Counted from the stretch's first letter, positions 1 through 5,609 are shown. The stretch is 64,000 nucleotides of DNA from Actinomycetes bacterium (GCA_038252405.1 JBBSAJ010000001.1:50530-114529); one strand, 5' to 3'. The notes: generated by a model not told the origin, from the sequence alone. Numbers and translations: made by a program.

Positions 1-269
1 TCGGCCTGATGCACGCGGCGCTGGGCGCGGTGGTCTGGGACGGCGCCTCCGGCCTGTTCGCGCGGGGTGGCCTGGCCTGGCTGGCCGGGGCGGTCGTCTT
101 CGTGGTGGGCAACCTGATCGCGTTCGCGCTGGAGGCGCTGGTGGCCGGCGTCCAGGCGCTGCGCCTGGAGTACTACGAGCTGTTCTCGCGGGTGTTCGAG
201 TCCGAGGGCCGTCCGTTCGTGCCCTGGCACCTGCCGACCGAGCAGACATTGGAGGAAGTGCAGCCATGA
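1..269 (+). CDS. ntpI: A/V-type ATPase subunit I (a), C-terminal fragment; the 5' part lies outside the window
   Basis: The in-frame translation ends ...[24 protein letters not shown], which is the typical C-terminus of V/A-ATPase subunit I. It is ATGA-coupled to the next gene (the ATG at 266 overlaps the stop at 267-269). Confidence 0.6.
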
Positions 270-688
270 CCTGGTTGATGGCCCTGCCCGTTCTCGTCGT
301 CGGGTCGCTCGCGGTGGGTGCGCTGCTTCGCCGGAGCGGCTCCGGCGCGGTGAAGGTCCTGCTCGCCGGCGACGCCCTGCTCCTCGTGGCGGCGCTGGTG
401 GTGCTGGCGCTGGCCGTGTCCGCGGGCCCGGCCGTCGCGGCACCGGTGGCCACCGCGACCACGACAGCGAGCTCGGCCTCCTGGGCCGCCCTGATCGGTG
501 CGGCCATCGCGGTGGCTGGCTCGTCCATCGGCGCGGCGATCGCCGTGGCGTACACGGGCGCCGCCGCACTGGCCGCGCTGAGCGAGCGACCCGAGCTGTT
601 CGGCCGGTCCATGGTGATCGTGGGTCTGGCCGAGGGGATCGCGATCTACGGGCTGGTCGTCGCGATCATCCTGATCGGCAAGGCCTGA
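266..688 (+). CDS. ntpK: A/V-type ATPase proteolipid subunit K (c); 140 aa with four predicted TM segments, the C-terminal hairpin carrying the conserved Glu
   Basis: The C-terminal half [59 protein letters not shown] is a canonical c-subunit hairpin with the GLAEG carboxylate motif. The N-terminal hairpin is degenerate. Confidence 0.75.
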
Positions 689-691
689 GCG

Positions 692-916
692 ATGGGCGCC
701 GTCGTGGCCATCGGAGCCCGCGCGCGGGTGCAGCCGTTCGCCCTCGCCGGGGTGGACTGGCGCGACGCGACGACGCCGGCCGACGTGCGGGCGGCGTGGA
801 CGGCGCTGCCCCAGGACACCGTGCTGGTCCTGCTCACCCCGGAGGCCCGCCAGGCGCTGGCCGACGAGCTGGCCGCGGTGACCAGCCGGCCGCTGTGGGT
901 GGAGCTGCCGCCGTGA
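692..916 (+). CDS. ntpF: A/V-type ATPase subunit F
   Basis: A 74-aa protein in the expected operon position between K and E, with composition and size consistent with subunit F. It is GTGA-coupled to the next gene. Confidence 0.55.
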   Translation: MGAVVAIGARARVQPFALAGVDWRDATTPADVRAAWTALPQDTVLVLLTPEARQALADELAAVTSRPLWVELPP

Positions 917-3155: not shown

Positions 3156-4552
3156 GCGCGGTGTTCGGGGAGGTCGAGTACTCCCGGGTCCGTCGGCTCG
3201 ACGGGCCGCTGCTGGTCGTCGAGGGGGTGCGCGGAGTCGGCTGGGACGAGTACGCCCATGTGCGGCTCGACTCGGGGGCGACGCGACACGGCCTGGTGCT
3301 GGAGGTCGACCGCGACGTCGCGGTCCTGCAGGTGTTCGAGGGCACGGAGGGCATGGCGGCGACCCGCAGCTGGGTGGGATTCACCGCCGAGCCGCTGCGG
3401 ATCGCGGTGGGGCCGGGCTGGCTGGGCCGGGTGTGCAACGGCCGCGGCGAGCCGGTGGACGGCGGCCCGCCCGTGCTCGGCCGGACCAGGGCCACCATCA
3501 CCGGCGCCCCGCTCAACCCCACCTGGCGGGAGCCGCCGTCCGAGCCGGTGTTCACCGGGGTGTCCGCCGTCGACCTGCTCACCACGCTGGTCCGCGGGCA
3601 GAAGCTGCCGATCTTCTCGGTGGCCGGCCTGCCGCACCTGGACCTGGCCACCCAGATCGCCGCCCAGGCCAGCGCCGGCGGCGAGCCGTTCAGCGTCGTC
3701 TTCGTGGCGATGGGGCTCTCGCACGCGGACGCCGCCATGGTGCGCGACGCGCTGGAGGGTCGCTCGGCGGCCGGCGAGCTGGTGCTCGTGCTCAACACCG
3801 CGGACGAGCCGGTGATCGAGCGGATCCTCGCGCCGCGGGTGGGCCTGACCATCGCCGAGGAGCTGGCCTTCACGCAGGGACGGCACGTCCTCGTCGTACT
3901 GGCCGACATGACCAGCTACGCCGAGGCGCTGCGCGAGGTCTCGGCCGCCCGCGGCGAGATCCCGGCCCGCCGCGCCTACCCCGGCTACCTGTACAGCGAC
4001 CTGGCGTCGCTGTACGAGCGCTGCGGCCGGGTGCGGGGGATGGCCGGCTCGGTGACGATCGTGCCGGTACTCACCATGCCGTCGGGGGACATCACCCACC
4101 CGGTTCCGGACCTCACCGGCTACATCACCGAGGGCCAGATCGTGCTGTCCCCGGACGTGCACGCCCGCGGCGTGTACCCGCCCGTGGACGCCCTCGGCTC
4201 GCTGTCCCGGCTGATGCGCAAGGGCGCCGGCCCGAACCGGACCCGGGCCGACCACCTCGACCTGGCCGCCCAGCAGCTGGCCGCTCTGGCCCGGGCCCGC
4301 AACGTCCGGGACATCGCCGATCTCGTGGGCGTGGACGCGCTGAGCCGCACCGACCGGGCCTACCTGGACTTCCAGCGGGTGTTCGAGCAGGTGCTCGTGG
4401 ACCAGCGCCGGGACGAGAGCCGCTCGATGGAGGAGTCCCTCGACCGGGGCTGGACCGCGCTCGGTGCGCTGCCCCGGCGGGAGCTGACCATGCTGCCGCT
4501 GGCCGAGCTGGACAACCGCTACCCGGCCGGGTCCGGGGGTGAGCAGCAGTGA
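3152..4552 (+). CDS. ntpB: A/V-type ATPase subunit B
   Basis: The ATG at 3152 is in frame with the track ORF 2153..4552, whose N-terminal extension is R-rich wrong-frame-like sequence. The protein begins MSAVFGEVEYSRVRRLDGPLLVVEGV and contains ...FSVAGLPHLDLATQIAAQASA..., typical of the V/A-type B subunit. Confidence 0.9.
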   Translation: MSAVFGEVEYSRVRRLDGPLLVVEGVRGVGWDEYAHVRLDSGATRHGLVLEVDRDVAVLQVFEGTEGMAATRSWVGFTAEPLRIAVGPGWLGRVCNGRGEPVDGGPPVLGRTRATITGAPLNPTWREPPSEPVFTGVSAVDLLTTLVRGQKLPIFSVAGLPHLDLATQIAAQASAGGEPFSVVFVAMGLSHADAAMVRDALEGRSAAGELVLVLNTADEPVIERILAPRVGLTIAEELAFTQGRHVLVVLADMTSYAEALREVSAARGEIPARRAYPGYLYSDLASLYERCGRVRGMAGSVTIVPVLTMPSGDITHPVPDLTGYITEGQIVLSPDVHARGVYPPVDALGSLSRLMRKGAGPNRTRADHLDLAAQQLAALARARNVRDIADLVGVDALSRTDRAYLDFQRVFEQVLVDQRRDESRSMEESLDRGWTALGALPRRELTMLPLAELDNRYPAGSGGEQQ

Positions 4553-5169
4553 CCGGGGTACGGGTGCTGCCAGGACGGGCCGGCCGGCTGCGGCTGCGTC
4601 ACCAGCTGACCGTCGCCAGCCGCGGCGCGGACCTGCTGCAGCAGCGGCTGCAGATCCTGCGCCGGGAGGAGCAGCGGTTCCAGCTGCTGGTCGAGCGGAC
4701 CGAGCGGGAGTGGGCCCGGTCCTGCCGGGAGGCCGAGGAGTGGACGCTGCGGGCGGCGCTGGCCGGGGGCCAGCGCGGGCTGCGCCAGGCCGCTCCGTCC
4801 GGGTCGGTGCGGGCCGAGGTCCGCTGGAGCTCGACGATGGGGGTGAGCTACCCCGAGACCGTCGGCTGCACGATCCCGGAGCCACCGAGGACGACGCCGG
4901 TCTGCGGAGTGGCCACGCCCGAGGCGCAGCGTGCCGCCGCGGCCGCGCTGGAGGCCGGCGCCCGGCACGCCGCGGCGGAGGCGGCGGTCCGCATCCTGCA
5001 GGCCGAGGTCGCCGCGACCCGCCGCCGGCTGCGGGCGGTCACCCAGCGGCGCATCCCGGAGCTGACCGCGGCCCTCGCCGCGGTCGACGTCGGCCTGGAG
5101 GAGCAGGAGCGCGAGGACGGCGCGCGGCTGCGCTGGGCGCTCGACCAGCGGACCGGGGAGCCACCGTGA
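4549..5169 (+). CDS. ntpD: A/V-type ATPase subunit D
   Basis: The GTG at 4549 overlaps the B-subunit stop (GTGA). The 206-aa coiled-coil protein (LRLRHQLTVASRGADLLQQRLQILRREEQRF) is in the usual final operon position. Confidence 0.75.
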   Translation: MTGVRVLPGRAGRLRLRHQLTVASRGADLLQQRLQILRREEQRFQLLVERTEREWARSCREAEEWTLRAALAGGQRGLRQAAPSGSVRAEVRWSSTMGVSYPETVGCTIPEPPRTTPVCGVATPEAQRAAAAALEAGARHAAAEAAVRILQAEVAATRRRLRAVTQRRIPELTAALAAVDVGLEEQEREDGARLRWALDQRTGEPP

Positions 5170-5609
5170 TCAAGCGGATCCTGCTGGCCGTCGACGACTC
5201 CGAGGGCGCCCTGGCCGCCAGCCGGGTCGCCATCGACCTGGCGGACACCTACCAGGCGGTGCTGCGGGTCGTGTCGGTGGTCGTCGACGGGGTGCTGGCC
5301 GGGGCGCTGGCCGACGGCGCTCCCCTCGAGCCGGTCCGGCAGCGGCAGCTGGTGGCCTCCTCCTCCGTGCTGCGCTACGTGTCGCAGGCGGCTCGGCGCC
5401 GGGGGCTCACGGTCGAGGTGCGGCAGCTGGAGGGCCGGGCCGCGCAGCGGGTGCTGCACGAGGCGCAGGAGTGGTCGGCCGACGTGATCGTGGTGGGCCG
5501 CTCGGCCGTGCGGGGCGCCGGGCTGCCCTACGTCGGCAGCGTGACCGCTCACGTGCTGGAGTTCGCCGAGCAGCCGGTCCTCGTGGTGCCCCCGCCGGCT
5601 CGCCGGTAG
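5166..5609 (+). CDS. Universal stress protein (UspA family), translationally coupled to ntpD
   Basis: The GTG at 5166 overlaps the D-subunit stop. The protein begins VIKRILLAVDDSEGALAASRVAIDLA and ends ...VIVVGRSAVRGAGLPYVGSVTAHVLEFAEQPVLVV, which is the USP fold signature. Confidence 0.8.
   Translation: MIKRILLAVDDSEGALAASRVAIDLADTYQAVLRVVSVVVDGVLAGALADGAPLEPVRQRQLVASSSVLRYVSQAARRRGLTVEVRQLEGRAAQRVLHEAQEWSADVIVVGRSAVRGAGLPYVGSVTAHVLEFAEQPVLVVPPPARR

Follow-up and report, generated by a model that had tools for sequence, protein, structure and literature searches.

The closest described relatives of the system examined here are the V/A-type ATP synthase of Thermus thermophilus (atpG-I-L-E-C-F-A-B-D), the Na+ V-ATPase of Enterococcus hirae (ntpFIKECGABD), and the archaeal A1AO synthases, represented by Pyrococcus horikoshii. 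Coexistence of A/V-type and F-type enzymes has been reported in 19 of 50 bacterial phylum-level lineages (PMC10656485), and V-type subunits in actinobacteria have been remarked on in passing (PMC12451618). We analyzed a 64,000-nucleotide stretch from an Actinomycetes bacterium (GCA_038252405.1, JBBSAJ010000001.1:50530-114529; hereafter the window) and found that positions 1-5609 are the distal part of a ten-gene, translationally coupled operon encoding a complete A/V-type rotary ATPase. The occurrence of such a system is by itself ordinary, as V-type subunits are already annotated in hundreds of actinobacterial genomes. What is new is the reduced architecture of this actinobacterial V/A-ATPase clade together with a dormancy-type box upstream of the operon. 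No paper in the open-access literature searched links V-type ATPases to DosR or dormancy, or describes the reduced architecture of the clade.

The operon possesses the same nine subunit families as Thermus, with a single-hairpin c subunit carrying one Glu and, by prediction here, the same H+ coupling, and the clade profiles of G, E, I, A, and B all matched Thermus chains. It differs from Thermus in its order (G-C-I-K-F-E-A-B-D), in a subunit I of 470 compared to 652 amino acids (aa), with approximately 165-180 residues of the N-terminal domain absent, and in a subunit F of 74 compared to ~104 aa (solved F homologues comprise about 100-115 aa). Further differences are a 70-residue, two-helix N-terminal extension of K, an additional N-terminal segment of ~40 aa in G, a universal stress protein (Usp) gene coupled to D, and coexistence with F1Fo, which the Thermus enzyme replaces. 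Similar to E. hirae, this is an auxiliary V-type enzyme beside F1Fo with four helices per K protomer, and NtpI was the best sequence match for I (E=2e-34). However, NtpK is internally duplicated with a full Na+ site, neither of which applies to K here, NtpI is full length, and subunit A is more distant from that of E. hirae (438 bits) than from Thermus (481 bits) or archaeal A (524 bits). The Pyrococcus chain was the top-scoring solved A, subunit E also matched, and the PF16886 insert of A is shared with the archaeal enzymes, which differ from this system in host domain, gene order, the truncation of a and F seen here, and the H subunit, which was not detected in this operon.

Mapping of the open reading frames (ORFs) together with Pfam and NCBIfam scans recovered the 3' part of I followed by K, F, E, A, B, D, and Usp, all on the + strand (Table 1), which bears out the gene content proposed in an earlier sequence-only reading of the window. 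The serial 4-nt ATGA/GTGA start/stop overlaps that it described were likewise read directly at 266, 913, 1425, 3152, 4549, and 5166, while the K-F junction is a 3-nt gap with no overlap. A purine-rich, Shine-Dalgarno-like stretch lies 5' of every start. Subunit A scored 634 bits as V-type A compared to 94 bits for atpD and 160-167 bits for FliI/SctN, which rules out an F-type or flagellar/type III secretion ATPase and upholds the A/V-type assignment. The insert PF16886, termed "non-homologous" and specific to A, was located at residues 111-190 (E=3e-12), and both the Walker A motif GGFGTGKT and the GERGNEM motif are intact and invariant across the clade. The F and E subunits are divergent, so their identity required clade profiles against solved structures. 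Subunit E had no match in the Pfam scan of the window proteins, and its clade profile matched solved subunit E of Pyrococcus and Thermus (E=5e-6 to 5e-4); the F profile matched solved F subunits at E=7e-4. The identity and architecture of the V/A-type operon can be regarded as practically certain. Its reality is far beyond chance, as it is syntenic and conserved across the 80 related species loci examined.

Table 1. Coordinates of the V/A-ATPase operon, its adjoining genes, and the F1Fo comparator. Positions refer to the window unless contig L082 is named.
Feature	Position	Strand	Evidence
G subunit, 146 aa	L082 6184-6624 (upstream of window)		clade profile vs Thermus G, E=3e-9
C/d subunit, 309 aa	L082 6621-7550 (upstream of window)		PF01992 in clade homologues
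Full I gene, 470 codons	L082 7537-8949 (spans 5' edge of window)		652-nt identical overlap
I (a) subunit 3' end, last 88 codons, frame of position 3	1..269	+	NCBIfam subunit I, E=3.7e-16
K (c) subunit, 140 aa	266..688	+	PF00137, 59.6 bits, residues 77-136
F subunit, short form, 74 aa	692..916	+	PF01990, 20.5 bits, under its cut-off; clade profile E=7e-4
E subunit, peripheral stalk, 171 aa	913..1428	+	clade profile; weak NCBIfam subunit E matches
A subunit, catalytic, 576 aa	1425..3155	+	NF003220, 634 bits (cut-off 470)
B subunit, non-catalytic, 466 aa	3152..4552	+	NF003235, 588 bits
D subunit, central rotor shaft, 206 aa	4549..5169	+	PF01813, 92.6 bits
Usp domain protein, 147 aa	5166..5609	+	PF00582, 74.6 bits
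Enoyl-CoA hydratase family (crotonase) gene	5655..6473	+	PF00378, 175 bits; 45 nt after Usp
Type IIA (SERCA/PMR1-like) P-type cation ATPase	6502..9336	+	TIGR01522, 653 bits; TIGR01116, 635 bits; 28 nt after hydratase
F1Fo operon atpBEFHAGDC (comparator, not part of the V/A system)	28883..36100	+	Pfam: a, c, b, delta/OSCP, alpha, gamma, beta, epsilon

Exact-protein look-ups of the window A and B subunits returned no contig, and the upstream genes were recovered through an I-subunit homologue (P0162) on a 9.3-kb public contig, L082, whose last 652 bases are identical to window 1-652. From this contig it was determined that the first 2.5 genes sit just 5' of the window, that the order is G-C/d-I-K-F-E-A-B-D-Usp, and that the G-C, C-I, and I-K junctions overlap too. 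Both G and C(d) had been anticipated just upstream of the window. The sequence-only reading had also remarked on the lack of a C(d) gene between E and A; none lies there, but since the gene was found upstream on L082, the "missing" subunit is relocated and not lost. The identity of C/d rests on per-member Pfam matches (38 of 53 clade homologues match PF01992, best E=1e-10); the homologue profile matched no solved-structure sequence. The operon of the 97%-identical relative L001 is laid out in the same way and is likewise followed by hydratase, P-ATPase, and SulP genes. It was also noted that subunit G carries a conserved ~40-aa N-terminal extension across the clade (LxRFRPxGxPGAA..GVPADR; R11, R13, and P27 invariant) at L082 6184-6310, ~2.4 kb 5' of the window. 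With subunit I truncated, this extension might make up for the loss by helping to anchor the stalk.

The membrane a subunit, I, is truncated. Its clade profile aligned with residues 219-654 of E. hirae NtpI and 180-648 of Thermus I, and the protein is ~180 residues shorter than solved homologues. R378 (SFARLAAFG) is invariant in the clade, and so is RLEYYELF, a motif of the last transmembrane helix that is present in the 88-codon portion within the window. An AlphaFold2 (AF2) model (mean pLDDT 78) placed a soluble domain at approximately residues 10-135, consisting of one alpha/beta lobe, followed by eight long helices, and Foldseek matched this model to V-type a subunits with probability 1.0. 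In Thermus, each of the two lobes of the I cytosolic domain holds one E-G stalk. The single cytosolic lobe of the model therefore makes it a reasonable inference that the enzyme possibly has one peripheral stalk instead of two.

We then considered the K subunit, for which the AF2 model gave four helices (residues 2-22, 26-52, 68-105, and 109-139), with high confidence for the last two only. In the protein, two helices form an N-terminal extension (residues 1-52), which an Ala/Ser/Thr-rich linker joins to a single canonical c hairpin (68-139) in which Glu123, invariant in the clade, is the membrane-embedded carboxylate. The C-terminal 68 residues are nearly invariant, and the N-terminal 70 are poorly conserved except for W3, P8, an RRxGR loop, and a membrane-embedded Asn/Asp. 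Asp36 (window 371-376, K codons 36-37) lies in the second helix of the extension and is Asn in most relatives. Comparison of the N-terminal half with the C-terminal half by hhalign gave a probability of 0.1%, and Foldseek against four-helix c subunits aligned ~66-79 columns, equivalent to one hairpin; K is therefore not an internally duplicated V-type proteolipid, and this candidate was rejected. K had been described as a four-transmembrane proteolipid whose first hairpin lacks the carboxylate. The four predicted helices stand, whereas the first pair is not c-type and carries Asp36. It was separately noted that the AGPAxA sequence and Ala/Ser/Thr-rich linker that follow the conserved Asn/Asp resemble a signal-peptidase site.

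The Na+ ligand set of rotary c subunits comprises Gln/Glu32, Glu65, and Ser/Thr66 in I. tartaricus numbering (PMC2359735). In an alignment mapped by hand from the loop motif, the K equivalents are Ala95, Glu123, and Gly124, with Tyr128 kept. The ligand set is incomplete and a Na+ pump was rejected; with Ala95 in place of Gln/Glu32 and Gly124 in place of Ser/Thr66, H+ is the predicted coupling ion.

We sought relatives of the system more broadly. Subunit A has thousands of homologues, the best 120 being 66-97% identical; most of those with names, from Streptomyces, Dactylosporangium, Saccharopolyspora, Planosporangium, and actinobacterial metagenome-assembled genomes, carry the annotation "V-type ATP synthase subunit A". 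When each GTDB species was represented by one genome, a scan gave at least 596 matching stretches, and the best 80, which were taken further, are almost all Actinomycetota. These best 80 include Streptomyces, Nocardia, Rhodococcus, Kribbella, Arthrobacter, Demequina, Streptosporangium, Nonomuraea, and Actinoallomurus, as well as Dactylosporangium, Lentzea, Gaiellaceae, Acidimicrobiaceae, and others. Using homology-anchored gene coordinates, C-I-K...A-B-D was found to be colinear in 67 of 79 actinobacterial species loci, and the clade median lengths are 148 aa for G, 309 for C, 468 for I, 140 for K, 73 for F, and 174 for E. The translational coupling of Usp to D noted earlier at GTGA 5166 proved real and recurrent, with a Usp gene within 120 nt 3' of D in 24 of 74 loci and the same 4-nt overlap in 19. 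The Usp tail HVLEFxxVPVLVVP is conserved. These results define a large clade, nearly confined to actinobacteria, with a fixed build of C/d before I, a short I, a short F, and a single-hairpin K with its extension. One locus, L006 (CAZAQV010000063.1), was binned as "uncultured Polyangiales" and carries a typical actinobacterial G-C-I-K-F-E-A-B-D operon with a 68%-identical A; it falls within the actinobacterial tree and was probably binned incorrectly.

The region upstream of G was examined for a DosR/OsdR-type box. The motif GGGMC-N4-GKCCC was tested at -160 to -31 of the G start in 52 loci, with dinucleotide-preserving shuffles as the control. Matches of at least 9/10 were found in 32 loci (shuffles 11%; P=5e-18) and exact boxes in 13 (shuffles 0.6%; P=8e-18). 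In a control region just 3' of the operon, the corresponding counts were 10/74 and 2/74. This motif had been widened to an OsdR-compatible form from PMC5069765 and is thus partly tuned on the published consensus, not on these loci; the strict M. tuberculosis core GGGAC-N4-GTCCC by itself gave a weaker signal. The boxes cluster at -70 to -110 of G regardless of the upstream gene, and an exact copy, GGGACATCCGGCCC, is found at -94 on L082, outside the window. In Streptomyces, the sites have the sequence GGGCCGAACGGCCC and closely match the OsdR consensus, including its flanking A/T. That consensus has been validated as AGGGCCGATCGGCCCT, with OsdR targets at -81 to -102 (PMC5069765). The same box also occurs 5' of neighboring CBS-BON, Usp, and Pyridox_ox_2 genes. 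Within the window, no intergenic box was found, and one exact match (9744) and 21 matches at 9/10 fall in coding sequence at approximately chance density. A GC-rich hairpin CCCCCTTCATGCGGAAGGGGG, terminator-like and without a T tract, was observed at L082 6055-6078, directly 3' of a molybdopterin oxidoreductase gene and just 5' of the box.

The operon is probably transcribed from a promoter under the control of a DosR/DevR/OsdR-family regulator, as predicted from the motif and from the neighboring genes, and such a promoter would make it part of the hypoxia or dormancy response. Expression under DosR/OsdR-type hypoxia or dormancy control is predicted with moderate confidence. M. tuberculosis is not known to possess a V/A-ATPase. 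The likeness to the M. tuberculosis DosR/DevR and S. coelicolor OsdR regulons lies in the same operator type at a similar distance from the start codon, with membership of the present operon being predicted; a difference is that the main text describing the OsdR regulon contains no mention of an ATPase or ATP synthase (PMC5069765).

The genes surrounding the operon were then compared across lineages. Flanking ORFs of 81 fetched loci and the first 22 kb of the window (82 sources) were clustered within 10 kb of the operon, and cluster representatives were Pfam-scanned. Usp genes were the most frequent neighbors (37/82), followed by CBS-BON proteins (19/82), type-II, CtpF-like P-ATPases (18/82), Pyridox_ox_2 and AMP-forming acyl/acetyl-CoA synthetases (13/82 each), and the E1alpha, E1beta, and E2 components of 2-oxoacid dehydrogenases (11-12/82). 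Hsp20 and a 4Fe-4S protein (Fer4_22) each appeared in 10/82 sources, PRTase-hydrolase in 9, cNMP-binding proteins in 8, and M50-CBS protease, NiFe hydrogenase, and TrkA in 7 each. Less common were ADP-forming acetyl-CoA synthetase (6/82), NAPRTase (5/82), and GAF-GAF-HisKA_3-HATPase_c kinases with the DosS/DosT/OsdK architecture (6/82), one example being L008 3956-5746 on the - strand. These neighbors correspond to the gene families of two dormancy regulons, that of DosR in mycobacteria and that of OsdR in Streptomyces, together with fermentative ATP and H2 enzymes. The families shared with those regulons are Usp, Hsp20, CBS, type-II P-ATPase, ferredoxin, PRTase-hydrolase, NAPRTase, and GAF-GAF kinase.

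Taken as a whole, the system is somewhat more plausibly a hypoxia-induced auxiliary proton ATPase than anything else. The operon would be transcribed from a DosR/DevR/OsdR-family promoter in hypoxia or dormancy, and as respiration fails the V/A enzyme would hydrolyze ATP from substrate-level phosphorylation and export protons. Proton export would maintain membrane potential and pH homeostasis, with F1Fo remaining the aerobic synthase, and the coupled Usp would serve as a nucleotide-sensing accessory or brake. Several observations weigh against this account. The genomes have ~72% GC and the box is a short palindrome rich in GC, with 20 of 52 loci lacking a match of at least 9/10. No DosR/OsdR orthologue was identified for this organism, and the operator predicted for it is located outside the window. 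Generic stress proteins make up many of the neighboring families, and the Usp has no complete G-x2-G-x9-G(S/T) ATP-binding motif. Against pumping in particular, the c hairpin bears a single carboxylate on its two helices, an arrangement shared with the synthase-type enzymes of Thermus and archaea, and subunit A is nearer to archaeal synthases of the A type (524 bits) than to the pump of E. hirae (438 bits). The direction of the pump is the least certain step, to which we give slightly less than an even chance.

The same two features are those expected if this enzyme, under the same hypoxic control, were instead an alternative ATP synthase at low proton-motive force, in which a larger c ring would raise the H+/ATP ratio above that of F1Fo and permit ATP synthesis in oxygen-limited cells. 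For subunit A, the nearest enzymes are those of Pyrococcus and Thermus, and the catalytic, stator, and rotor subunits are all intact, which is in keeping with synthesis. However, a complete F1Fo operon lies in the same window, and in bacteria with both enzyme types, the V-type usually acts as a pump. The recurrent neighbors are moreover ATP-yielding fermentation enzymes (ADP-forming acetyl-CoA synthetase, 2-oxoacid dehydrogenases, and hydrogenase) and not additional respiratory complexes. A synthase role, the main rival to the pump, is judged rather unlikely.

A second alternative is that the palindrome is not a DosR/OsdR operator but the site of another regulator or an RNA hairpin, that the operon encodes a general stress proton pump (acid, salt, or stationary-phase), and that its Usp-rich neighborhood consists of generic stress islands. 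The shortness and GC-richness of the motif, with only 62% of loci scoring at least 9/10, would fit this, as would the fact that Usp, Hsp20, and CBS proteins answer many stresses and that TrkA and cation P-ATPase neighbors point to ion or osmotic homeostasis. Such a site would not be expected to keep its position at about -70 to -110 whatever the upstream gene, nor to fit the OsdR and DevR consensus established by experiment, flanking A/T included, and the DosS/DosT-type GAF-GAF kinases nearby, with families particularly like those of the DosR regulon (PRTase-hydrolase, NAPRTase, and M50-CBS protease), also argue against it. We consider general stress an improbable explanation.

The proposed hypoxia-induced proton ATPase is of interest for the physiological question of how obligately aerobic actinomycetes (Streptomyces, Nocardia, and mycobacterial relatives) sustain membrane potential and ATP homeostasis when oxygen is absent, a question relevant to persistence and to drugs directed at ATP synthase. 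If it belongs to the DosR/OsdR circuit, this second rotary ATPase would be a concrete candidate that can be deleted in cultured strains. A bolder version, tentative and on balance doubtful, holds that a structurally reduced V/A-ATPase lineage under DosR/OsdR control keeps the membrane of these actinomycetes energized in anoxic dormancy. Equally tentatively, the machine would combine a single-lobe a subunit, possibly one stalk, a K extension that is either cleaved or ring-lining, and a Usp stoichiometric with the rotor shaft. For the structural biology of rotary motors, the clade offers a natural minimal V/A-ATPase with a truncated a, short F, extended c, and Usp partner. It is the testable link to dormancy and the minimal stator that give the system its value, rather than horizontal transfer.

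The operon had also been read as sporadic and horizontally acquired. Its GC content of 0.760 and third-position GC (GC3) of 0.95 compare with 0.724 and 0.94 in the window core genes, and its distance to core genes in relative synonymous codon usage (RSCU) is 0.047 compared to 0.068 for the F1Fo operon, so that the compositional check found a native operon with no deviation. The atpB coordinates entered into this comparison were out of frame, which makes the F1Fo GC3 mean too low but leaves the conclusions on GC and codon distance unaffected. No mobility genes were seen in window 1-28 kb, and the V/A block lies ~8 kb from the conserved argS-lysA-rho-prfA-prmC-sua5-glyA-atp region. In a neighbor-joining (NJ) tree of concatenated A and B from 69 taxa, Streptomyces, Nocardia, Streptosporangiales, and Micrococcales form clades, with Acidimicrobiia and Gaiellaceae basal. 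Native codon usage and a tree that follows taxonomy at order level do not support recent horizontal acquisition, and the at least 596 matches among the GTDB species genomes speak against a sporadic system. The evidence instead argues for an old system that has been mostly vertically inherited and often lost, not a recent import. Vertical phylogeny among close relatives, which the sequence-only reading had itself set against acquisition, is nearly what the A+B tree shows; because this NJ tree has no outgroup and no support values, a point that weighs against us, it is not yet proof of vertical origin. Native and mostly vertical inheritance is in our judgment highly likely.

It is very improbable that the V-ATPase, Usp, crotonase, Ca-type P-ATPase, and SulP genes form a recent horizontal ion-homeostasis island with no relation to the lineage's core physiology. 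In favor of such an island, distribution within genera is patchy, the operon being found in some Streptomyces and some Nocardia only, the block adjoins the P-type ATPase and SulP transporter in this lineage, and bacterial A/V-type enzymes are generally attributed to ancient transfers (PMC10656485). Against it, the operon cannot be told apart from core genes by GC3 or codon usage, no genes of mobile elements were observed beside the block, which lies near the argS-lysA-rho-prfA-atp core, the A+B tree tracks actinobacterial taxonomy, crotonase and SulP are not conserved neighbors, and K has no Na+ ligands.

Among the genes downstream of Usp, no counterpart of the crotonase recurs beside the operon in other lineages among the 82 sources. 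Of these sources, 18 have a type-IIA P-ATPase homologue within 10 kb of the operon, and SulP recurs in 3 only. The earlier grouping of crotonase, P-ATPase, and SulP into one ion-homeostasis block is not supported; the recurrent neighbors form a hypoxia/dormancy set. Both P-ATPase model scores are under the equivalog cut-offs. No terminator-like site was found in the 45-nt Usp-hydratase or 28-nt hydratase-P-ATPase gaps, and with gaps this short the transcript may therefore continue through 9336; the hydratase is possibly co-transcribed, and the P-ATPase possibly the last gene of the same unit. The P-type ATPase (+) and the SulP transporter (-) converge with 3' ends overlapping by 4 nt (9333-9336), which excludes SulP from the transcription unit. 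A sigma-70 promoter and intrinsic-terminator scan of 1-12 kb returned nothing and is uninformative for actinobacterial promoters.

The canonical atpBEFHAGDC operon reported in the same window was recovered by Pfam at 28.9-36.1 kb. It was noted that its atpH product (30713-31528) comprises 271 aa with the OSCP/delta domain at 105-270 only, leaving an extra N-terminal segment of ~100 aa that may be a b-like extension or fusion. Directly 5' of atpB lies a 136-aa ORF (28265-28675) with a GC3 of 1.00 and no Pfam match, which is probably atpI. Between the V/A block and argS are a 509-aa Fic/DOC-domain protein (11133-12662, -) and a receiver-only response regulator of 127 aa without an output domain (13085-13468, +). 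Rho (20127-22193) is 688 aa in length, with Rho_N from residue 116, the RNA-binding domain from 312, and long N-terminal and internal insertions.

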